Origin: Alphaproteobacteria bacterium
GTDB taxonomy: Bacteria > Pseudomonadota > Alphaproteobacteria > RF32 > CAG-239
Reading direction: 5' to 3'
Length of the DNA: 64,000 nt
NCBI GenBank assembly: GCA_047975765.1
Contig: JBKEEF010000013.1
Span: forward strand, 67,727 to 131,726
The position numbers and the translations under genes are program-made. A model generated the notes under the pieces. The model saw only the letters and a program-made list of their open reading frames with translations. It had not been told where the DNA came from and ran no database searches. Positions 14,502 to 53,659 of the stretch are shown here, piece after piece. Positions within the stretch are counted from its first letter, which is position 1, and each line of letters begins with the position of its first letter.

Positions 14502-15281
14502 TTATTTTTCTATAAATTTTTCAGTATAGGGATAATTTTTAACCGTTTCACGATTGATTTCATTGCATTTTGTTTCTATCGCATCTCTTAGTTTATCCAT
14601 AAAATCTTTCTTATCAAGGTTTTTTTCGATAGGTGGCATAAATTCGAAAATAATCTTTCCTGGGTATTTCAAAAATGAACGTTTCTTCCAAAAAAGACCT
14701 GTGTTATGGGCTACTGGAATAATAGTTGCATCAAGGTTTTGATAAAGAAAAGCAACACCTGGTTTATATGGTACGATTTTCCCTGGTTTTGTTCTTGTTC
14801 CTTCAGGGAAAATAACGATTGAACGACCTTTTGCAAGAAATATCTTCGCAACGTTCAACATATTTTTCATCGCACTGCTTCCTCCACTTCTGTCAATTGG
14901 AATAGCACCATAAGCAGCAACAGCCCAACCAAAAAGTGGAATATATGAAAGTTCTTTTTTGAAGATATATGTTGCTCCACCCTTGACGAAGGATGTAATC
15001 ATATATGTTTCTAATTCAGATTGATGACGAGAAGCATAAATTGCACCTTGTCCTTTAAGGATATGTTCTTCACCTCTAACTTCAATTTTCAAACCACAAA
15101 CAATATGGAGCAAATATCTGAAGAAAACGAGCATGAAGCTATTCCAAAAAGCTGTTTTGATTTTTGTTGGTAAAAACCAACCAAGAACAGAATATAAAGC
15201 CAAGGCACTAAATCCTGTGATATAAAAGATAATATTAAAAATTAAGGAACGTATAAAAGTGAGGATAATCATGATTTTCAC
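14502..15281 (-). CDS. plsC: 1-acyl-sn-glycerol-3-phosphate acyltransferase
   Basis: N-terminal transmembrane helix, acyltransferase HX4(D/E) block (YASRHQSELE), and a later FPEGTR motif. Confidence 0.75.
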   Translation of the reverse strand: MKIMIILTFIRSLIFNIIFYITGFSALALYSVLGWFLPTKIKTAFWNSFMLVFFRYLLHIVCGLKIEVRGEEHILKGQGAIYASRHQSELETYMITSFVKGGATYIFKKELSYIPLFGWAVAAYGAIPIDRSGGSSAMKNMLNVAKIFLAKGRSIVIFPEGTRTKPGKIVPYKPGVAFLYQNLDATIIPVAHNTGLFWKKRSFLKYPGKIIFEFMPPIEKNLDKKDFMDKLRDAIETKCNEINRETVKNYPYTEKFIEK

Positions 15282-15286
15282 CTAAA

Positions 15287-15859
15287 TTATAAAAGCGTTT
15301 TTAAATAGACATAGAGAAATTTATTATATTCTGATGCCAAGAAATAGAAACTATGCCAGTCTTGCCACCAGTTTTTTGTGAGATTATCCGTAAAAACAGG
15401 GTGAGCAATAATTTGCACGTTTTTATTTTTTGCAGAAATCTCTTGAATGCTTCTAAACATATGATAGTTCGAAGTGACAAGCCTTATGGATTTTATATTA
15501 TTTTTCTTTATCCAGTTGTCAACCTCAATTGCGTTTTCCACCGTGTTTGTTGCTTCATTTCCAATTTGAACTTTTTCAAAATGGATGTTTTCAATATTAT
15601 TAATATCAATAATTTTTTGCAGAGAGATTTTTTTATCTACGCCTGAGATGAAAAGTTTTTCTGCTAAATTTTCGTTTAGGAGGACCATAGCTTCGTGAAG
15701 GCGATATTTTCCTCCTGTCAATACCACAATAGCATCTGTTTTGCTATCTTTGTCAATTCTCAAGTCATAAATTCGATGCGAAAAAATGGCAAATCCAATA
15801 AACCAAGTACAAAGAAAGAAGATAAAGCTGAAAAAGAAAATTCGTCCTATTTTTTTCAT
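15287..15859 (-). CDS. DUF218 (YdcF/SanA/ElyC-like) domain protein
   Basis: N-terminal transmembrane helix plus AIVVLTGGKYRLHEAMVLL...LVTSNYHMFR. Confidence 0.6.
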   Translation of the reverse strand: MKKIGRIFFFSFIFFLCTWFIGFAIFSHRIYDLRIDKDSKTDAIVVLTGGKYRLHEAMVLLNENLAEKLFISGVDKKISLQKIIDINNIENIHFEKVQIGNEATNTVENAIEVDNWIKKNNIKSIRLVTSNYHMFRSIQEISAKNKNVQIIAHPVFTDNLTKNWWQDWHSFYFLASEYNKFLYVYLKTLL

Positions 15860-30037: not shown

Positions 30038-30114
30038 GGGGGTGTAGCTCAGTTGGTTAGAGTGCTTGCCTGTCACGCAAGAAGTCGCGGGTTCGAGCCC
30101 CGTCACTCCCGCCA
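30038..30114 (+). tRNA. tRNA-Asp (anticodon GTC)
   Basis: 77-nt cloverleaf folded by hand: GGGGGTG acceptor stem, anticodon loop CTGTCAC, T-loop TTCGAGC, encoded CCA. Confidence 0.9.
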
Positions 30115-30147
30115 TTCAAAGCCTTGCTTTTGCAAGGCTTTTTGTTT

Positions 30148-31296
30148 TCATTCTGACTTTTTATTTTTCTCATTCTGACTTTTTACATATTCAACTAATT
30201 TATTTGTTGCAGTAAGTCCTATTTTTTCAGTTGGGCTTTTGTATGTGCTATTAAACATTTTTTCGCTTTCGTGACCTGTTATTACGATTGCAGCAGCACT
30301 TGTGACACCAGCTTCTATATATGCAGTGCTTCCAGAATGTCGCATTAGTCTGAAGGTATAGTTAAACCCTAGTTCTTGACAAACATTTCTAAAGTAATCT
30401 TGAAAACGTCTGACTGTGAAATCTCCAAAATCATCACAAATGATGAAATCTTTTTTAGATAATATTTCTCTTTCCAGATGTTTTGGTACAGGAAGAATTA
30501 CTTTCTTGCCTAGTCTTTCCATTTTGTTTTGAATTATGCTAAAGAAATAATGGCCATCTTTTTTGTAAAGGTCATCTTTTCTTAGTTTTAACACATCAGC
30601 TGGCCTTTGAGCAAAATATAAATCAAGTTCAGTTCCTAGCGCTATTGCTCTATATGCTTCCGCTTTGTTTTTATATTTTTCATCTTCAGCCATTTCTTTA
30701 GCTTTATTAATAATTGCATGAACATCTTCAATTGGAATATATAGTTTTTCTGGTTTTTTTCTTCTTATTCTCATATTCTCAAAAGGATTTTTCTTTGAAA
30801 GTCTTTCTTTTCTTAGTCCAAAATTGTATATTAACCTTAGAAAATCCATACAGTTTTTAGCCCATCTTTCTTTTATTTCTTCAACCAGATTTTCATATAG
30901 TTTATATGCGATGTCATAATTGAATAAATCTAAAGGAGTGTCGCTTAACATTACTCCTTTTTTGTTTTTCTTTTTTGAAAGAATTTTATAAGCATTTTCA
31001 TAATCTTTCTTTGTTCTTGCTGCTAAATCTTTGTAAAAACGGCTATCAATATATATTGTCCAGAGATAGGATAGAGATTTATTGATGATTAGATCTTTTT
31101 TGTTTCTAAATTCTTTAATCTCTTTATTTAGTTTTTCAGCTTTTGCGTATGCTTCCCACTTTCCAGAGCCAAGTGGAATTGACTTTCTTATTTCTAAACC
31201 TTCAGGAACAAGGCGAGCAGGCATAACGAAGTAATAAGATATTACTCCGTTAGCAAGTTTCTTTTCTTGAACATATTTAGGTTTATCTCTTTTCAT
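30148..31296 (-). CDS. int: tyrosine-type site-specific integrase
   Basis: 382 aa. The C-terminal catalytic region contains LMRHSGSTAYIEAGV and HESEKMFNSTY (R-H-R-Y type). Confidence 0.9.
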   Translation of the reverse strand: MKRDKPKYVQEKKLANGVISYYFVMPARLVPEGLEIRKSIPLGSGKWEAYAKAEKLNKEIKEFRNKKDLIINKSLSYLWTIYIDSRFYKDLAARTKKDYENAYKILSKKKNKKGVMLSDTPLDLFNYDIAYKLYENLVEEIKERWAKNCMDFLRLIYNFGLRKERLSKKNPFENMRIRRKKPEKLYIPIEDVHAIINKAKEMAEDEKYKNKAEAYRAIALGTELDLYFAQRPADVLKLRKDDLYKKDGHYFFSIIQNKMERLGKKVILPVPKHLEREILSKKDFIICDDFGDFTVRRFQDYFRNVCQELGFNYTFRLMRHSGSTAYIEAGVTSAAAIVITGHESEKMFNSTYKSPTEKIGLTATNKLVEYVKSQNEKNKKSE

Positions 31297-40929: not shown

Positions 40930-41607
40930 CTATAACTCTTTCATTTTGATTTGGTAATCAATCACCACAGCAGCGATATCATATTCTTTGTCGTCGGGGT
41001 GGAGAATGATATTGTTTATTGTTGGGTTGGTCGATTCGGCAACCAGAACAATTGTGTTGTTATCTGTTTTCATATATCTTTTGACAGTAGCTTCATATAG
41101 TCCGTCAGAGCTTTTTCGATATGCAATGATGTAGTCGCCATTTTCAATCTTGCCGTCATAATCATCTATGCAACAACATATAAGCGTTGTTTTTTCTGGC
41201 GGAAAGATTTTATTCATCGAATCGCCACGAACTCCTAGAGCGAAAATTCTTTTGTTTTTGAGGTTATCATTAACAGGATAATATACTTCTTCCCATTCAT
41301 CTTCAGGGAGTTGCGTCGCTTCATTCCATGCACCAGCTTGAACAAAACCGATTTTTGAAATTGTTGTTATTTGATTATTATTTTCATAGTCTAATTCTTT
41401 GGTAACACCTGATATATATTTTGTAAAGTTTTCTAAATTTATGTCTAAAAATTTAGCAAAAGAAACGATTTCTTTTTGCTGAATTTCCCTAATACCTTTA
41501 ATTATAGCACTTAAATGGGGTGGGGCAATGTTAACATAATTAGCTAATTCTTTTTGTGTTTTTCCAAGATCTTTCAATCTATCTTTTATAAACTCATATT
41601 TTGTCAT
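40930..41607 (-). CDS. cI: CI-like repressor (HTH_XRE plus S24 LexA-like peptidase)
   Basis: N-terminal HTH (KTQKELANYVNIAPPHLSAIIKG). C-terminal S24 with ALGVRGDSM and a Lys further downstream. Confidence 0.85.
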   Translation of the reverse strand: MTKYEFIKDRLKDLGKTQKELANYVNIAPPHLSAIIKGIREIQQKEIVSFAKFLDINLENFTKYISGVTKELDYENNNQITTISKIGFVQAGAWNEATQLPEDEWEEVYYPVNDNLKNKRIFALGVRGDSMNKIFPPEKTTLICCCIDDYDGKIENGDYIIAYRKSSDGLYEATVKRYMKTDNNTIVLVAESTNPTINNIILHPDDKEYDIAAVVIDYQIKMKEL

Positions 41608-45266: not shown

Positions 45267-45770
45267 ATGAATACAGCAAAGAAGTTGAAGGCTGAAGAAA
45301 AGGTTGAGTTCACAAAAGAACAAATCGAAAAAAGAAGTTTAGAGAAAGTTCTAGGTCGTTTTCAATCAAAAACAGTTCTGGAAAAATATTGTGACAATGG
45401 AGATTTAGGAATACTCCGAGATGTTTCTCCAAATGATTTGCTGTCTGCTGGTAAAAGGCTCTATCGTGATTGGTATCTTTCTGGACTTCCCGAACTCAAA
45501 GCAAGTCAGTATGATAAGCCAATTGTTGATAGCTCCGTTTCTAGTTATTGCCCAACTAGCAAGGAAGATGCATTTGACCGTTATGAAAAAGCTATGAAGT
45601 CTGTATCTTCTCATTTTAGAGAAATTGTTCGTATTGTTTGTGTTGAGGATAAGCCGATTGTGGCGAATGATAACAACTCAGCCTATCGTAAGTCAATCGA
45701 TATTGGTTCACAAAAAAAAGACCTTTGCAGGGGACTTTTTGAACTTGTTTGTCATTACAGGGGGAGATAA
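45267..45770 (+). CDS. hypothetical phage protein
   Basis: 167-aa ORF. Confidence 0.4.
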   Translation: MNTAKKLKAEEKVEFTKEQIEKRSLEKVLGRFQSKTVLEKYCDNGDLGILRDVSPNDLLSAGKRLYRDWYLSGLPELKASQYDKPIVDSSVSSYCPTSKEDAFDRYEKAMKSVSSHFREIVRIVCVEDKPIVANDNNSAYRKSIDIGSQKKDLCRGLFELVCHYRGR

Positions 45771-45907
45771 CCAATGAATGAAAAAGCAATCGGAAAAATA
45801 AAAGAAAGATGGTATAAAAAATTATGGAAATGATACCGACCGACTACCGACTTTTAAGTTGAATTTTAATATTTTTTTATTTATGATTGCAAAAAAGGGA
45901 GATTGAT

Positions 45908-46876
45908 ATGTTTTGTGGAAAATGCGGAAAAGAGATTTCTGATGATGTTAAGTTTTGCCCCCATTGTGGAAAATCAACATCTAATGAAGCTATAAAACCT
46001 GTTTCAGAAAATAAAAAGGTTGAGTTTAAAGTGAGTAAAAAAGAACTTCCAAAAAATAAATTTGTTTGGTACTTATCCTTTGTTTTATTTCTTTTCGTTT
46101 ATACTTGTGTAAATAATATGGATAATCATAAAAACTCCACAAGTACACCTAAAGTTAGTTATTCAACAAAAGTGGATACTTCAAAAAAGGAAGATGTTAA
46201 AAAAGTTGAGGAAGAAGTTACAATAAAAGAAAATGTACCAGCAAGTGAAGATAATCAGATAGGTGCATTTATCATAAAAGAAGAGTATGAAAATATAAAA
46301 GAATATATTGGATGTAAAACAAAAAAAGAGCTTTCAAAAATAACAGATGCTTATAAAGGTAATATTGATAGATCTAATATTCCTTCTCTTTTAAATTCTA
46401 AAAGATGTATGTATATTGATAATAAAGAAGAAAATTATTATAAAATTCAGCTTTTAGAAAAAAATAAAGAAAATACAAGAATAAATAAAGTTAGATTAGT
46501 TCACTATGCAATTGATGATGTTGATTTATATGTTGATATCTATTTATCCTTAAAAGATATAGAGTTAAAAAGTAAATATGAAGTTTTCTCAGAAAAAATG
46601 AAGATTAAAGAGGAAAGTGAAAATAAAAATAAAATAGTTTATAATGATACGGCCTTTTATATTTGCACTACTATGAAAAATTGGAATGCTCTGTTTTTCT
46701 ATAGCAGCGGCACTCCTGAATTTAAGCGATTATTTAGTAGTGGAAAATGTATAAAAATAAGAAGTAAAACAAAACTTAAGAAATTATTTTATTTTGATGG
46801 TGCTTGGCAATATGAAGTTTTGGATGGTCCACATAAGGGTGAAAAATATTTTGGCACGAACATTGAAGATAAATAA
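45908..46876 (+). CDS. zinc-ribbon membrane protein
   Basis: Start at the ATG at 45908 (AAGGGAGA RBS). N-terminal CGKCG...CPHCG, one transmembrane helix, then a K-rich domain of about 250 aa. Confidence 0.5.
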   Translation: MFCGKCGKEISDDVKFCPHCGKSTSNEAIKPVSENKKVEFKVSKKELPKNKFVWYLSFVLFLFVYTCVNNMDNHKNSTSTPKVSYSTKVDTSKKEDVKKVEEEVTIKENVPASEDNQIGAFIIKEEYENIKEYIGCKTKKELSKITDAYKGNIDRSNIPSLLNSKRCMYIDNKEENYYKIQLLEKNKENTRINKVRLVHYAIDDVDLYVDIYLSLKDIELKSKYEVFSEKMKIKEESENKNKIVYNDTAFYICTTMKNWNALFFYSSGTPEFKRLFSSGKCIKIRSKTKLKKLFYFDGAWQYEVLDGPHKGEKYFGTNIEDK

Positions 46877-46932
46877 ATATTTTGTATAATTGTAGTAATA
46901 AATTAAAATAACAGTAAGGGAGAAAATTAATA

Positions 46933-47391
46933 ATGTCTAAAGAAATAGTCTATCTAAAAAAAGGTTTATCAAAAAATGAAGAAATATTAGGTGTGGCAGA
47001 GATACATTGGAGTTGCTATATCGTACCTAGTTTAATTTTGTTATTTTCTATTATTATTTTTCTTGGTGGGGGAAAAGATTCTTTTATACCAGGCTTATTG
47101 TTTTTATTTTGGTCTGTATTATCTTTTCTTTCCAGATATAAAACAGAATATGTGGTTACAAACAAAAGAGTTATCTCAAAAACAGGAATTATCACTGTTA
47201 AGACAAGAGAAATTAAAAATTCTCAAGTAGAATCGGTTTCTTTGGATCAGGGGGTTTTAGGAACTATTTTAGGATATGCGGATATTTCTTTTAGTGGAAC
47301 AGGAACAACAAAAGTTTCTTTTCAAGATATAAAAGATCCTGTGTTTATAAAATCTAAATTAGAAGAAATAATAGAAGGTAATAAAAAATAG
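46933..47391 (+). CDS. bacterial PH (bPH_2 / YdbT-like) domain membrane protein
   Basis: Two N-terminal transmembrane helices, then YKTEYVVTNKRVISKTGIITVKTREIKNSQVESV typical of bPH_2. Confidence 0.65.
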   Translation: MSKEIVYLKKGLSKNEEILGVAEIHWSCYIVPSLILLFSIIIFLGGGKDSFIPGLLFLFWSVLSFLSRYKTEYVVTNKRVISKTGIITVKTREIKNSQVESVSLDQGVLGTILGYADISFSGTGTTKVSFQDIKDPVFIKSKLEEIIEGNKK

Positions 47392-47690
47392 TATTAAAGA
47401 GAGCATCTAGCTCTCTTTTTTATTGACAGATAGTTTGTAATCTAATAATATTCTAAACAGAGCTAGAAACTCTGTAGTAAAGCGTAACGCACCCAAGACG
47501 AAAAGGTGTCTTTTGTATTTTAAATGAAATTCCACGTTTGCTCCGTGTGAGTGTCAAATTTATACATTTCATCTCTTTCTATGCTAGGAGTGCGAGGAAT
47601 ATATTGAATAACTCCGCACATCTTTGCTTGTGTTTCTAGCTCCTAGCACCTTACTATTTAAGGGAATCCTATAGAAAAGGAAGTAAAGAA

Positions 47691-48332
47691 ATGAAAAAAG
47701 AGTTACAAAATTTATCTATTCATAGTTTAGAAGTGATTGATGATGAACCTAGAATCAAAGATGTGATTTTGGGTGAAAGATTGGGCTTGAAAAAAGCGAG
47801 AGATGTTAGAGTTGTTATTAAGTCAAATATGGCGGAATTGTTAAAATATGGTGGTACGCCGTTACTGACGGCGAACGAGAAATTAGGTTGCTTAACCAGA
47901 ATGACAGAAGCTTATTATCTCAATGAAGCACAGGCCTTGTTGATTTGTATGTTTTCACGAACAACAAAAGCGGCGGAAGTGAGAAAAGAGCTGATTGATG
48001 TTTATATGGCTTATCGGACAAAAGGCTTGGTCAAGGTCAAAGAACATTATCGCAATAGTGTTAAGCAAGTTGAGGAAGTAAAAATCAAGAACAACAATGG
48101 TGTTATTGCAGTTCCTGAGCCAGTTTATAAATATATTCATACTGAGCTTGGTGTTTATGACCCAACAATGAGTAAGTTGTTTTCTTTTATCAAGAATGCT
48201 TGTAAGACAGCCGTTCGGGAAGAATTAAATCTTGAAGCTCTTAAGGTTTTAGAATCTCTTGAAGATAAAGACAGGCAGATTGCCGAACTTGACTTTAAGC
48301 TGATGAATATTAGGAAGCTTGTTGTTAGGTAA
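47691..48332 (+). CDS. hypothetical phage regulatory-like protein
   Basis: 213 aa. Weak resemblance to Rha or antirepressor N-terminal domains. Confidence 0.3.
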   Translation: MKKELQNLSIHSLEVIDDEPRIKDVILGERLGLKKARDVRVVIKSNMAELLKYGGTPLLTANEKLGCLTRMTEAYYLNEAQALLICMFSRTTKAAEVRKELIDVYMAYRTKGLVKVKEHYRNSVKQVEEVKIKNNNGVIAVPEPVYKYIHTELGVYDPTMSKLFSFIKNACKTAVREELNLEALKVLESLEDKDRQIAELDFKLMNIRKLVVR

Positions 48333-48432
48333 AGTTATAAAGCCCCGAGAGATTGGGGCTTTACATTTTATGTAAATTATGCTACCTATGGTGTTAGATA
48401 TAACTTTCGTAAAATCTAACAGGAAAACAATA

Positions 48433-48846
48433 ATGGCTAATGTATATGATGTTGCTAAACACATTTTAGAGAAGATGGGTAAAGTTACAGGGATGAAACT
48501 CCAAAAGCTTTGTTATTACTCTCAAGCTTGGTCATTGGTTTGGGATGAAGAGCCTCTATTTTCTAACCCAATTAAAGCATGGAAATACGGTCCAGTTTGT
48601 CATGATCTATATAATTTGCACGATGGACAATTTATTGTTGAGATAAGTAAAGATCTTACTTCACGTTGTGAGAATAATCTCACAGAGAAACAAGTTGAGA
48701 CAATAGATGCTGTGATTAGAGATTATGGTGATTTCACTGCACAACAATTGAGCGACTTAACACATTCTGAGGATCCATGGAAAAATGCTAAACAGAATGA
48801 AATTATATCTGCTACAGCAATGCACGAGTTTTATAGCAGTTTATAG
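48433..48846 (+). CDS. Panacea-domain (DUF4065, COG3600 GepA/SocA-like) protein, putative PanA antitoxin
   Basis: VAKHILEKMGKVTGMKLQKLCYYSQAWSLVWDEEPLFSNPIKAWKYGPVCHDLY matches the DUF4065 core (KLQKLLYYAQ..W...G.PLF...AW..GPV). Confidence 0.65.
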   Translation: MANVYDVAKHILEKMGKVTGMKLQKLCYYSQAWSLVWDEEPLFSNPIKAWKYGPVCHDLYNLHDGQFIVEISKDLTSRCENNLTEKQVETIDAVIRDYGDFTAQQLSDLTHSEDPWKNAKQNEIISATAMHEFYSSL

Positions 48847-48861
48847 ATATAATGGTGTTGT

Positions 48862-49332
48862 ATGTCCAAGGTAAATAAGAAGGCTAAGGTTAATCGTTCT
48901 AATATAAAATCAAATACTAAAGTATCAAAAATAGGGTCTTTGGCAGATAATAATAGATTTAAGTGGGCTTTGAGAAGTGATATTGTTGACTGGGATTGGA
49001 GACATAATGATTTCAGTTTTGGAGATAAAATAAAAGATTTGCTTATCTTTTATAATAAAATAAAGCCAACTTTAGATAGCTATGCACAAATGACATGGGA
49101 CGAAGTAAATCTAAGAAAGCATTGCCATTCTTGGGACATTACCTATCTTCATAGTGATTTAATTAAAAGATTCAAAGACAGATTTAGGTCTGAGGAATGT
49201 TCAGAAACGCTTTATCAAATAAATATTAATCAAAAACATAGGATAATAGGCTTCAAAGAAGGCGAGGTTTTTTATATTATGTGGAATGACCCTAATCATA
49301 AGGCTTATATTACACAAAAAAAGAATACATAG
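48862..49332 (+). CDS. candidate toxin partner of the PanA-like gene (novel; RelE/YoeB-like C-terminal motif)
   Basis: 156 aa, basic N-terminus, C-terminal HRIIGFKEGEVFYIMWNDPNHKAY. Starts 16 bp after the PanA-like stop. Confidence 0.35.
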   Translation: MSKVNKKAKVNRSNIKSNTKVSKIGSLADNNRFKWALRSDIVDWDWRHNDFSFGDKIKDLLIFYNKIKPTLDSYAQMTWDEVNLRKHCHSWDITYLHSDLIKRFKDRFRSEECSETLYQININQKHRIIGFKEGEVFYIMWNDPNHKAYITQKKNT

Positions 49333-49442
49333 TTAAATAGTTCTTGACATCATTCAGAATGTCGTATTATAAACAAATTAAGATGTAGAAGTGTGTGAAT
49401 GTTTCTGCATCTTTTTTTATGGAAACATAAAATAAAATTCTA

Positions 49443-49472
49443 AAGCCCTGAGTTCGTTCTCGGGGTTTTTTA
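49443..49472 (+). terminator. rho-independent terminator preceding phage tRNA
   Basis: AAGCCCTGAGTTCGTTCTCGGGGTTTTTT. A second hairpin plus T-run lies at about 49385-49425. Confidence 0.5.
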
Positions 49473-49473
49473 T

Positions 49474-49549
49474 TGCGAGATGGAGAAGATGTTATCTCGT
49501 TCCGCTCATAACGGAAAAATCGTAGGTTCAAATCCTACTCTCGCAACCA
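49474..49549 (+). tRNA. phage-encoded tRNA with CAT anticodon (Met or Ile2)
   Basis: Manual cloverleaf: acceptor TGCGAGA/TCTCGCA, D-stem GAGA/TCTC, anticodon stem TTCCG/CGGAA with loop CTCATAA, T-arm GTAGG-TTCAAAT-CCTAC, discriminator A, encoded CCA. Only position 19 is atypical. Confidence 0.6.
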
Positions 49550-50177: not shown

Positions 50178-51713
50178 ATGAATCCATTGTTGCTAGGTTC
50201 TTTCCTACTTAGTCAGCCATTTGAGATTTGGCTCAGATTCTTGTTTAAGAAAGTGGAAAGTCGTCCTTTTGTTGTTGAAAATGTACATAGGAGTATTTTT
50301 GAAACCTATGAAAACATTTTCAACATGAATGAAGATTACACATTCACAAATTTAAATCTTCCGCCCAGGTCTGGAAAAACTATTATTGCTGAATATTTTC
50401 TTATTTATTGTCTTCTAAAGGCTGCAATAAATAAAAAGGGAACAAATTGGATATATATATCATATTCAATTAAACTTTTGAAAGAAGTATCATCTGGTAT
50501 TAAAAATATTGTAGAATCACAGATATTTAAATTATTGTATGGAGATCAGTATTTCAATATTCATCAATCTGATATTGAATTTACAGATGATGCTTTCGAA
50601 GATTACTATAAATCAATTGGTGAAAGTAAAGAAGTTATTAAATTTTCATCAACAGATATTACGCTTGGTAGAAGCAGAATTGTTCTTTCTCCTCTTGGTG
50701 GGCAAATCACAGGATTTGGTGCTGGTGTTCGTGGTGGAGAAGACTATGTTAGCGGTGGTATATTCTTAGATGATATTAATAAAATTCAAGATACTGTACG
50801 GTCAGAACTTTTAAGAGAAAAAACAAGACAATATTTTTCAGGTGTTATTTTCTCAAGAAGAAACAATCCAAAAGTTTTAATTATGAACATTCAGCAACGT
50901 GTTCATATTGAAGATATGACGGGATATTTAGAAGATACATACAACTTCAAGACAATCAAAGCTCCTTTGATTGGGGAAACAGGAATATGTCAAATTCCAA
51001 GTCAGTATGACCAAAGAACTATAGATATGCTTAAAAAGGATAATTTTACTTTTCAGGCTCAATATCAACAAGATCCAATTCTCGAAGGTGGATATCTTAT
51101 TAAAACAGATTTTATTAAAAGATTTGAAGAACCTTTGGTGACCTATAAACAAATGTTTATTGTTTGCGATACAGCTTTTAGCGAGAAGAAGTCATCAGAT
51201 TTTTCCGTCTTTGGGTTGTTTGGAATAGATGAAAAAAATAATATTTGGCTTGTTGAAGGTTATTGTAAGAGAGTTTCATTTCCAGACTTGAAACGAGACT
51301 TAAGGAGTTTTTACCTTTCTGCAGTATATAAATTTGGTAAATATAACAATATAAGCACAATATATGTTGAAAATAAAGGCTCTGGAATAAGCTTAATTCA
51401 ACAGTTGAGGGAAGATGGACTACCAATAAAAGAGCTATCACCAACATATTATAATGCTGAGTTTAAGAAAGAAGAAGTTTCTGATAAATATACTAGGTTC
51501 TTAGAAATATCCGCTGACATAGAAAGCGGATATTTTTATATGCCTAGAGAAGCTCATTTTTTAATGGAACTTATTCGCCAATGTGAATCTTTTACAGGTG
51601 GTAAACAATCCTATCATGACGATTGGGTTGATGTGCTTATATATGCTTTAAAAATTAGAAGAAAAAATATTCAAGATATTGATTGGCAAAATTTCGGGAA
51701 CATATTTAGATGA
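50178..51713 (+). CDS. terL: terminase large subunit
   Basis: Walker A PPRSGKT. C-terminal RNaseH-like nuclease with CDTAFSEKKSSDFSVFGLFG. Confidence 0.88.
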   Translation: MNPLLLGSFLLSQPFEIWLRFLFKKVESRPFVVENVHRSIFETYENIFNMNEDYTFTNLNLPPRSGKTIIAEYFLIYCLLKAAINKKGTNWIYISYSIKLLKEVSSGIKNIVESQIFKLLYGDQYFNIHQSDIEFTDDAFEDYYKSIGESKEVIKFSSTDITLGRSRIVLSPLGGQITGFGAGVRGGEDYVSGGIFLDDINKIQDTVRSELLREKTRQYFSGVIFSRRNNPKVLIMNIQQRVHIEDMTGYLEDTYNFKTIKAPLIGETGICQIPSQYDQRTIDMLKKDNFTFQAQYQQDPILEGGYLIKTDFIKRFEEPLVTYKQMFIVCDTAFSEKKSSDFSVFGLFGIDEKNNIWLVEGYCKRVSFPDLKRDLRSFYLSAVYKFGKYNNISTIYVENKGSGISLIQQLREDGLPIKELSPTYYNAEFKKEEVSDKYTRFLEISADIESGYFYMPREAHFLMELIRQCESFTGGKQSYHDDWVDVLIYALKIRRKNIQDIDWQNFGNIFR

Positions 51714-53659
51714 ATTTAGTAAATAAGATATTTGGAAAAAATAACAATAAGAATAAAGATAAAATACAAAATGATTGGATAGGTTTCAATTTTTCTCTAA
51801 AATCTTTGGAAGATAAAGATAAAATTGTAGAAATAGTTGAACCAAAAACATTAGCAAATATGCGTCTTGAAGGTAATGCTAATGATTATGGTTCAGGAAA
51901 GGGAATAAAATTATATAATTCTCATAAGCTTAAGATGGATAATCAGTGGGTTAATCCTTTTAGTTCTGTAAACACTGGGTATGGAACTGCCCATCTTTCA
52001 TTATATATGTATCAACCAGTTAATTATTACCAATGTGCTGTTATGGCACAAGATCCACTTTTTGCAAGGCTATTTAGTATTTTATCTGATGAACCCCTTG
52101 CTAAAGGCGGAGAAATAAGAACAAAGGATACAAAAGAAGATAAATTTTTTGATGAAATTGATGTCTTGGTAACAAGATATAAAATTATTGAGACTGTTAA
52201 ATTAGCTCTTAAAAAATCTTATAGCTTAGGTGGTTGTCTGGTTTTAAAAGATTGCGGGTCCAACAATCTAGAGTTACCATTTAGAAAATCAGATTATAAA
52301 AAATTCAAGGGATTTAGAATTATTGAACCTATGAATTGTACAGCTGTTGATGTTAATACTACAGAACCTGCAAAAGAAAATTATATGGACCCAGATAAGT
52401 GGTATATTATTGGTTTAGGAGTCGTCCATAAAAGCCATGTTATTAAATTTTCATTAAATGAACCTGAAGAATTTCTTAAGCCTATTTGTATGTATTTGGG
52501 AATGCCTTTAACGCAAATATTAAAGCAAGATGTAGCAAATTCAAATCTAGCTTCTCAAGGTCTCGCAAATATGATGAACAGATTTAGAAATATATATCTC
52601 AAAGTTGACGATACAAATTTTACTGGATCTGGAGCTTCTAATTTTAGATCGAGACTTGAAGCTATGGGGATATTACAAGATAATTTTAATGTCACTCCTC
52701 TTAAAAAAGATGAAGATGTTGTTCAACTTGTATCATCAATAGCTGGAATGAATGAATCTGTTGAGCTTTTCTATCAAATTGTAGCTTCAAAATCAGGTGT
52801 TCACTTCTCAAAATTATTCAAAACATCTCAAGGTTTAAATAATGATGGAGAAGGTGACAGAACAAATCATTATGATAACCTTAAAGCAGTTCAATCATAT
52901 CTTTCTCCAAAAATGGTTGAGATGTATAATATTATTGGAAAAATATATACTCAAGATGATGATTTTGAATTTATAGCTTATGATTTTAATGAGCTTGAAA
53001 TTCCTACACCAAAAGAGAAAGCGGATCTAATTAAAGCACATATTGAAGCAGGAAAAAATCTAACAGAAATGGGGGCTAAACGTGAACAGGTCTTTGAATG
53101 GATAAAAAGAAATAAAGAATTTGATTTAGAAGATATTGAACTTGATTTAGAAACAGATTTTCTTGATGAATATGAAGAAAAAGAAGTTAGTGTTCATAAT
53201 GAAAAATTTATTGAAAGTGATCATACAAGAGATGAAGATGGAAAATTTACAAGCACTGGTTATTCTCGTGATACATCAGAATATTTATCCAAAGAAACCA
53301 AAGATTTTTTGGGCGAAAAATTTGAAGGATTTAAAGGAAGAGATGCTATTGATAAATTGATGGGAGAAAAAAGAGGATATGTTCCTAATGCATTTAGCCG
53401 TAAAGATATTGGAGATGTTTCTTTAATATGGGGTGATGATGAAATGGGATTGCAACATATTATTAAAAGAAGAAAAGAAACAAACCAGCCCATTGGAAGA
53501 CTTTTCGAATCATTAACAGAAGTTATTGAGAAAGGAAATATTTCAGAAGGCAAGAAAGGAAGATTTGAAATAAACTATAAAGGCAAGTTAGCAATTATTG
53601 AGCCCAAACTTTACAATGAAACGATAAATTTTCTTTTTACTGCTTATTACGAAAGATAA
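51710..53659 (+). CDS. portal protein with C-terminal extra domain
   Basis: 649 aa between terL and MuF, with an ATGA overlap onto terL. An acidic linker at about residues 465-495 is followed by a C-terminal module of about 150 aa. Confidence 0.65.
   Translation: MNLVNKIFGKNNNKNKDKIQNDWIGFNFSLKSLEDKDKIVEIVEPKTLANMRLEGNANDYGSGKGIKLYNSHKLKMDNQWVNPFSSVNTGYGTAHLSLYMYQPVNYYQCAVMAQDPLFARLFSILSDEPLAKGGEIRTKDTKEDKFFDEIDVLVTRYKIIETVKLALKKSYSLGGCLVLKDCGSNNLELPFRKSDYKKFKGFRIIEPMNCTAVDVNTTEPAKENYMDPDKWYIIGLGVVHKSHVIKFSLNEPEEFLKPICMYLGMPLTQILKQDVANSNLASQGLANMMNRFRNIYLKVDDTNFTGSGASNFRSRLEAMGILQDNFNVTPLKKDEDVVQLVSSIAGMNESVELFYQIVASKSGVHFSKLFKTSQGLNNDGEGDRTNHYDNLKAVQSYLSPKMVEMYNIIGKIYTQDDDFEFIAYDFNELEIPTPKEKADLIKAHIEAGKNLTEMGAKREQVFEWIKRNKEFDLEDIELDLETDFLDEYEEKEVSVHNEKFIESDHTRDEDGKFTSTGYSRDTSEYLSKETKDFLGEKFEGFKGRDAIDKLMGEKRGYVPNAFSRKDIGDVSLIWGDDEMGLQHIIKRRKETNQPIGRLFESLTEVIEKGNISEGKKGRFEINYKGKLAIIEPKLYNETINFLFTAYYER

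Follow-up and report, generated by a model that had tools for sequence, protein, structure and literature searches.

A prophage-borne Panacea gene pair in an alphaproteobacterial genome: a diverged T1-type locus with a predicted RelE-like partner protein

Panacea antitoxins pair with dozens of toxin families. In an alphaproteobacterial prophage, a gene for a small Panacea protein, panA, is followed closely on the same strand by a gene for a 156 aa basic protein, which raises the question of whether the second gene encodes a toxin controlled by the first and, if so, of what kind. The window examined for this purpose, meaning the whole stretch of DNA that was analysed, is 64,000 nucleotides long. 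The reading preferred here, to which we give a probability of about 60%, is that the two genes form a bicistronic PanA-PanT module of T1 type carried by the prophage, in which the partner would be an RNase that is neutralised by PanA.

The gene pair and its prophage setting

The prophage setting is confirmed by an integrase gene next to a tRNA-Asp, a CI-like repressor gene, and terS, terL, portal and capsid genes, all within the 64-kb window, with head and tail genes continuing up to the window end. The G+C content is 33% across the whole region. The neighbours of panA are the toxin candidate gene, a Rha/Bro-like gene, a bPH_2 gene, a tRNA and terS. The features of the locus are these:

30.0-31.3 kb: tRNA-Asp and tyrosine integrase, prophage region
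40930-41607: CI-like HTH plus S24 peptidase repressor, prophage region
48338..48363, + strand: intrinsic-terminator-like hairpin after the upstream Rha/Bro-like gene, with an 11-pair stem, 5 GC pairs and a T-rich tail
48392..48421, no strand assigned: 13-nt inverted repeat (I1), TGTTAGATATAAC / GTAAAATCTAACA, 85% complementary, 4 nt between the arms
48433..48846, + strand: panA, stand-alone Panacea/DUF4065 protein, 137 aa, pI 5.1, PF13274 match
48862..49332, + strand: panT candidate, 156 aa, basic, pI 9.6, 15 nt after the PanA stop codon
49380..49413, + strand: terminator-like hairpin 3' of the toxin gene, 15-pair stem then TTTTT
about 49443..49472, + strand: second GC-rich hairpin with a T-run, AAAGCCCTGAG-ttcgtt-CTCGGGGTTTTTT, seen in the sequence by eye
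49474-49549: tRNA-Met(CAT), after the third hairpin, with terS, terL and the portal gene next

An earlier note on this DNA had placed the pair between two terminators and a phage tRNA, in what it considered a typical moron context, and both parts of this description hold. The hairpins at 48338-48363 and 49380-49413 enclose the pair, which lies inside the prophage ahead of the tRNA-Met and the terminase genes. The upstream hairpin also appears with perfect 9-nt arms in the inverted-repeat scan (I2), and it terminates the Rha/Bro-like gene; the module would be shielded by it from upstream transcription. The hairpin at 49443-49472, which is absent from the terminator scan listing, adjoins the tRNA-Met directly; in a blastn comparison of the region with phages, the tRNA was the sole match. 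No convincing sigma-70-like promoter was found by the promoter scan between the terminator at 48338-48363 and panA. The 13-nt inverted repeat abuts the panA ribosome-binding site on its upstream side and could act as an operator or form a hairpin in the 5' leader. A separate 9-nt perfect repeat, putatively regulatory, reaches from the stop codon of panA across to the ribosome-binding site of the toxin gene.

The panA ORF begins MANVYDVAKHILEK, and an AGGAAA Shine-Dalgarno-like sequence lies 6 nt 5' of its ATG at 48433. An in-frame ATG at 48379, which gives the longest version of the ORF, was considered as the start and rejected. Both the AGGAAA and the N-terminal alignment favour 48433, since related PanA proteins share the N-terminal motif MANVFDVA or a close variant of it (aligned in loci L001, L002, L003, L006, L007, and L010). 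The ORF at 48433-48846 encodes 137 aa, where 138 had been given, and the toxin ORF starts after a gap of 15 nt, where 16 bp had been given. The DUF4065/COG3600 core that the earlier note had recognised is borne out by a Pfam HMM search, in which PF13274 (SocA_Panacea) matches from end to end, with E=6e-23 and 82.4 bits against a cutoff of 25.7, the entire 113-position model being covered. PanA carries no additional N-terminal domain, also matches phrog_1281 (E=8e-38) and PHROG 10390, and has no PADLOC match. It is predicted to act as an antitoxin or as a sensor.

The adjacency of the two genes is not peculiar to this prophage. The related loci come from metagenomes (L001-L010), from plasmid pTH2b of Rhizobium (L011), and from a faecal phage (L012), and a PanA gene of the same subtype is found directly 5' of the toxin gene, on the same strand, in 10/10 related loci inspected; the spacing between the two genes is a 4-38 nt overlap or short gap. 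There is a called PF13274 gene upstream of P0002 (L001), P0003 (L002), P0006 (L003-L005), P0008 (L006), and P0012 (L007). Upstream of P0016, P0030, and P0063 (L008-L010) the contig ends inside the gene, and the remaining fragment reads as the C-terminus of a PanA (...LSDLTH.E.PW...EYY.G). On plasmid pTH2b of Rhizobium sp. TH2, a gene annotated as "SocA domain-containing" overlaps that of a 180-aa hypothetical protein by 4 nt, and the pair is likewise present, with a 4-nt overlap, on the high-GC faecal phage contig. Tail tape-measure or lysozyme genes near several of the related loci give these a phage-like context. Because the order of PanA then toxin is found in all ten loci, the pairing is not due to chance, and the proposal that the downstream gene is the partner of PanA is upheld. 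The charges of the two proteins are complementary (pI 5.1 for PanA, 9.6 for the toxin candidate). Across the related loci the identity to the window proteins is 46-61% for PanA and 26-47% for the toxin.

The family of the partner protein and its link to cluster T1

The C-terminus of the 156 aa protein, ...HRIIGFKEGEVFYIMWNDPNHKAYITQKKNT, carries the HRIIGFKEGEVFYIMWNDPNHKAY motif quoted in the earlier note. The protein has no match in Pfam-A, nor has any of 60 relatives, and neither it alone nor its family profile has a meaningful sequence match among PDB chains. A word-indexed homolog search returned the protein itself only, or 5 proteins when the family profile was used, and an exhaustive HMMER search was required to recover the family, which comprises 232 or more cluster representatives at E<=1e-3, the majority of them 145-170 aa long. 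The deposited protein identical to the panT candidate comes from an Alphaproteobacteria MAG. The longer members (193-237 aa) were read for a fusion of PanA and toxin, and their N-terminal extensions are of other kinds, not Panacea-like. With tblastn the protein has no match in the phage and plasmid collections, where the family consensus finds one record in each.

Three models match, weakly though consistently, at about residues 64-149. Of these, phrog_8366 is found with E=9e-9. The NCBIfam model NF046006 ("MAG6450 family") scores 28.4 bits (E=1.9e-6), below its 40-bit cutoff, and is matched by 56/60 relatives at E<0.01 (best 3e-10); a score below the cutoff makes the panT candidate a diverged relative that goes unnamed under the NCBI annotation rule. 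The third is the PADLOC model of NsnC, which matches with E=1.4e-5 over model positions 206-279 of 284, and the same C-terminal region of NsnC is matched by 41/60 family members (best 3.3e-9). In the Menshen anti-phage system, NsnC is predicted to be the effector, with an RNase activity that is likewise a prediction, and its C-terminal region (PB-BECR1) belongs to the Barnase/EndoU/Colicin/RelE superfamily, with YafQ as the closest structure and an H-R-H triad (PMC12065111). One family member matches CARF_RelE.

Conservation was counted in an HMM alignment of 153 family sequences, with the numbering of the window protein, which retains all six of the residues listed here:

W79: conserved in 144/153
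H89: conserved in 135/153
R127: conserved in 147/153
G130: conserved in 149/153
D143: conserved in 146/153
H146: conserved in 147/153
H89, R127 and H146 together: 130/153 (85%)

H89, R127 and H146, each conserved in 88-96% of the 153 sequences, would correspond to the H-R-H triad described for NsnC PB-BECR1. Among these residues are the R in 'HRII' and the H in 'NHKAY'.

The earlier note had the 156 aa protein matching no recognised family. This does not stand, since the protein matches PHROG 8366, and NF046006 below its cutoff, and has homologues in T1, one of the toxin clusters described by Kurata et al. 2022 (PMC8832971). In that survey, 1,268 predicted PanA-toxin pairs were sorted into 88 toxin clusters, of which T1, with about 217 label occurrences in Dataset S1, is level with the MqsR cluster T2 and one of the two largest. 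T1 consists of "hypothetical proteins" 3' of a PanA without an N-terminal domain, from Mollicutes (including M. agalactiae 5632), Firmicutes, Bacteroidetes, Proteobacteria (including Rhizobium), and phages (PMC8832971). The tested members are labelled "mRNase" in Table S1 of the same study.

Phage Emek and M. agalactiae provide the link to T1. The T1 member Emek gp16 (YP_006560566; L013) aligns with the family profile in hhalign with a probability of 96.8% and E=2.9e-10 over 114 columns, an alignment that spans the FxW, (M/L)TW and G-x-R-x-G-x-x-F-(F/Y)-(I/V)-x-W-x-D segments, and it scores 40 bits against the family HMM. Emek gp16 is also the core of phrog_8366 (E=9e-66), which is the PHROG that the window toxin matches, and phrog_1281 is common to the PanA proteins of Emek and the window. 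On the mycoplasma side, the M. agalactiae pairs belong to T1 and the NCBIfam model bears the name of MAG6450. The neighbour of MAG6450, MAG6440, is annotated "prophage protein ps3", which we take to be an older annotation of DUF4065-type proteins. None of the T1 accessions that were looked for is in the NetFlax supplements. Judged by homology, the window pair is a diverged PanAT member of the catalogued cluster T1.

Predicted fold, proposed mechanism, and alternatives

The AlphaFold2 model of the panT candidate, made with a 60-sequence alignment, has a pLDDT of 84.4 and a pTM of 0.73. In the model, the Lys-rich residues 1-30 are a low-confidence N-terminal tail, which is followed by a short conserved strand around F33-x-W35 and by a core (residues about 57-150) with helices at 57-74 and 98-107 and strands at 89-92, 116-122, 126-133, and 136-142. 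This corresponds to the description of the RelE/ParE (BECR) fold, a compact alpha/beta structure in which an antiparallel beta-sheet packs against N-terminal helices. In a fold comparison the highest score is that of T. thermophilus RelE (6.7, with 83 residues aligned), followed by HigB (5.7), the H. pylori toxin 4ls4 (5.6), YafQ and archaeal RelE (5.2 each), YoeB (5.0), and ParE (about 4). The core is therefore one for which a RelE/ParE (BECR) fold is confidently predicted by the model.

The likeness to RelE and YoeB that the earlier note had seen in the C-terminus stands at the level of the fold, of the conserved Arg/His arrangement, and of the profile matches to the BECR region of NsnC, but it does not extend to membership of the classical families by sequence. 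The curated superfamily models (Pfam ParE_toxin, YoeB, HigB, RelE, YafQ, and MqsR) match neither the window protein nor any of the 60 members. In hhalign comparisons with hand-entered reference sequences of E. coli RelE, YoeB, and YafQ and P. vulgaris HigB, nothing was significant; the best local match, also not significant, pairs 'KHRII' with 'EHRLV' of YoeB. The structure prediction and Foldseek search that had been suggested gave a similarly divided outcome: the model is RelE/BECR-like, and YoeB and RelE head the Foldseek ranking, although no hit is significant (the best has E=0.14 and a target-normalised TM-score of 0.55), and nothing significant was found by Foldseek in BFVD.

In the mechanism that we propose, the 156 aa protein would be an endoribonuclease and would halt translation by cleaving mRNA or some other RNA associated with translation, and its Lys-rich N-terminal tail may aid RNA or ribosome binding. 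The acidic PanA would bind the toxin directly and hold it inactive, a mode of neutralisation by stand-alone Panacea proteins that has been shown for other PanT toxins (PMC10440598). In the lysogen the module would be expressed on its own, independently of its neighbours, and may serve as an addiction element or as an abortive-infection element in defence against superinfection, the RNase being freed when PanA is lost or triggered.

An explanation that overlaps with this one, and differs from it in how the toxin is activated, is that PanA is the sensor of a defence module, in which it would respond to a trigger such as a protein of a superinfecting phage and free a RelE-fold RNase as abortive-infection effector, so that the prophage protects its lysogen. 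That the effector domain is common to NsnC of Menshen is in keeping with such a role, as are the moron position of the pair within the prophage, with terminators on both sides, and the finding of its relatives in phages and prophages. Ernits et al. 2023 (PMC10440598) have proposed that Panacea is primarily a sensor, and the higher identity kept by PanA than by the toxin across the related loci would be unusual for a disposable antitoxin. Yet PADLOC has no model for such a pair and does not match PanA, and the direct neutralisation by stand-alone Panacea proteins (PMC10440598) means that a sensor role would add to that of antitoxin rather than replace it. We regard this explanation as possible, if doubtful.

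Whether the partner is toxic at all is a question raised by the published tests on three T1 members, which gave no validated toxin-antitoxin pair (PMC8832971). The C. cadaveris toxin was toxic in E. coli and its cognate PanA failed to neutralise it, while the members from Emek and E. coli MOD1_EC5558 were not toxic in E. coli (PMC8832971). With two of the three tested members being non-toxic, the 156 aa protein might instead be an RNA-binding or regulatory partner of PanA, without toxicity, in a pair that serves another phage function. An Emek-like pair persists in 48/5426 complete E. coli genomes, and MAG6450 of M. agalactiae tolerates transposon insertion, though this would also be expected of a toxin gene. 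Against this, Emek gp16 stands alone among the 153 sequences in having Ala and Phe at the positions of R127 and H146; the H-R-H set is intact in the window protein and in 85% of members. The loss of these two residues gives a simple explanation of why Emek gp16 is not toxic, and from the alignment the two observations fit a requirement for R127 and H146 in toxicity. The toxicity of the C. cadaveris member and the strong conservation of polar residues on what is predicted to be a nuclease fold would likewise favour a catalytic protein, and a non-toxic partner seems unlikely.

The RelE/ParE fold also contains gyrase poisons without nuclease activity. That the window protein is a ParE-like DNA gyrase poison, or some other member of the fold that is not a nuclease, is very improbable, even though ParE is among the partners of PanA listed by Kurata et al. 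(PMC8832971). ParE is outscored by RelE, HigB, YafQ, and YoeB in the fold comparison, there is no match to Pfam ParE_toxin, and the sole significant sequence links are to a predicted RNase domain, with the one member that matches CARF_RelE pointing the same way. The His/Arg/His residues resemble the catalytic sets of the YafQ/YoeB type, which are absent from ParE (general knowledge and PMC12065111). An RNase held in check by PanA is the reading that we retain.

Significance and comparison with known systems

With the window pair, T1 gains a diverged member from an alphaproteobacterial prophage. What goes beyond the catalogue is the predicted RelE/BECR fold with its H-R-H set, the homology to the NsnC effector, and the loss of two of the three conserved residues in Emek, which provides a rationale for picking intact members for validation. 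The general view of toxin-antitoxin or defence systems is unchanged by these results. More tentatively, T1-type pairs of PanA and a BECR protein might be a widespread phage-borne immune module, in which PanA senses a cue of infection and unleashes an RNase of the lineage of Menshen NsnC. If this were so, the failures in validating T1 would come from degenerate, catalytically dead copies, as in Emek, and from assays in which the native trigger or host was missing, and catalytically intact copies such as the window pair would be the right objects for testing. It would also tie one of the two largest clusters of PanA partners to anti-phage defence, and would mean that effectors are shared between toxin-antitoxin modules and Menshen.

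The SocAB system (type VI, Caulobacter) has an antitoxin with the same Panacea/DUF4065 domain, SocA, which acts as a ClpXP adaptor, and its host is alphaproteobacterial, as is that of the window pair. Equivalence to SocAB was considered and rejected, as PanA scores 56.1 bits with the SocA equivalog model NF047745 against a cutoff of 190 bits and the partner family differs. SocB makes up toxin cluster T10, which is distinct from T1 (PMC8832971).

The ribosome-dependent type II mRNA interferases RelE, YoeB, YafQ, and HigB are small and basic, like the window protein, but have no detectable sequence homology with it, and the window toxin has about 55 extra N-terminal residues in comparison. Its Arg on a predicted central beta-strand and a His/Tyr close to its C-terminus recall R65, H83, and Y84 of YoeB. 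The antitoxins of the four are RelB, YefM, DinJ, and HigA, whereas that of the window is a Panacea protein.

With NsnC of Menshen there is significant profile similarity over a core of roughly 80 residues, PB-BECR1 and the window toxin both having a BECR/RelE-like fold, as predicted for the latter, and an H-R-H set. The N-terminal parts differ, NsnC having an inactive-PIN domain where the window toxin has the Lys-rich tail and the FxW strand. Menshen also comprises genes for NsnA (ParB-DUF262) and NsnB (ABC ATPase), neither of which is at the window locus, and, unlike in Menshen, the partner of the window toxin is PanA. Membership of Menshen was therefore rejected, as only positions 206-279 of the 284 of NsnC match and the neighbouring genes have no PADLOC matches. 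Panacea or DUF4065 is not mentioned in the Menshen paper (PMC12065111), nor is Panacea in the 2025 paper on RelE/ParE defence toxins, so that in the papers examined the kinship of T1 toxins with the NsnC effector domain seems to have gone unremarked.

The T1 pairs, represented by Emek gp15/gp16, C. cadaveris WP_074844973/WP_074844970, and M. agalactiae 5632, share with the window pair the same stand-alone ('noNTD') PanA upstream, the order of antitoxin then toxin, a small gap or overlap between the genes, and a partner of roughly 150 aa, and they are often phage-borne, as the window pair is borne by a prophage. The pair of Emek (vB_SemP_Emek, a Salmonella phage) has 34% identity to that of the window in PanA and 19% in the toxin. 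The host of the window pair, a low-GC alphaproteobacterial MAG, is unlike those of the T1 examples, and the window toxin retains the full H-R-H set, of which Emek gp16 has lost the Arg and the second His.

Probable left end of the prophage and the neighbourhood of the module

The tRNA-Asp and the tyrosine integrase gene that it adjoins (30038-31296) are likely to be the left end of the prophage. A run of accessory genes on the plus strand (45267-48332) lies 5' of the module formed by panA and the candidate toxin gene. The phage-borne tRNA-Met(CAT) is placed after the terminators of the toxin gene and before terS.

Features of the prophage around the panA-toxin module
30038-30114, tRNA-Asp, adjoining the integrase gene
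30148-31296, minus strand, tyrosine integrase
40930-41607, CI-like repressor with HTH_3 and Peptidase_S24 domains
within 45267-48332, plus strand, DUF6456-like gene (weak match, below the cutoff)
45887-46876, plus strand, 329-aa zinc-ribbon protein; its top PHROG match carries the annotation "membrane protein"
46933-47391, plus strand, bPH_2 "membrane-flanked domain" protein (phrog_3707, moron category)
47691-48332, plus strand, 213-aa protein with Rha/Bro/anti-repressor-like matches, all weak
48392-48421, 13-nt inverted repeat directly 5' of the panA ribosome-binding site
48802-48853, perfect 9-nt inverted repeat (ATTATATCT/AGATATAAT), spanning the panA stop codon to the toxin ribosome-binding region
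49474-49549, plus strand, predicted tRNA-Met(CAT), which may be of the initiator, elongator or tRNA-Ile2 type (ARAGORN; Rfam tRNA, 63.8 bits)
51710-53659, plus strand, portal protein (PF06381, E=7e-42)

Of the two inverted repeats around panA, the 13-nt repeat may be an operator and the 9-nt repeat may form a hairpin for translational coupling.

The portal protein carries a PF18809 PBECR1 domain at its C-terminus (residues 561-625, E=3.6e-9), which, as predicted from this domain match, is a second BECR-fold nuclease-like domain within the same prophage as the toxin candidate.

Conservation of PanA and the toxin family

In the related loci that carry a homologous pair (L001-L011), PanA has 46-61% identity to the window protein, whereas the toxins at these same loci have 26-47%. 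The antitoxin is usually the faster-evolving partner of such a pair, and the greater conservation of PanA than of its toxin across these loci therefore looks unusual.

Some members of the toxin family (P0065, P0102, P0104, P0120, P0131, P0136, and P0141) are 193-237 aa in length, with N-terminal extensions that precede the conserved core. Fusion to Panacea was considered for these longer proteins and is probably not the case, the extensions looking unlike Panacea when the sequences were read by eye.

Comparison with gp16 of phage Emek

In Salmonella phage vB_SemP_Emek (L013), the annotated gene of the toxin-family member gp16 (15152-15637) overlaps the PanA gene by 62 nt. In both the PHROG alignment and the family alignment, however, gp16 is matched from residue 23 (MARKSKR...) at the earliest, so that its true start probably lies downstream of the annotated one. 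Where the toxin family conserves Arg and His, R127 and H146 in the window toxin, the alignment has Ala and Phe in Emek gp16.
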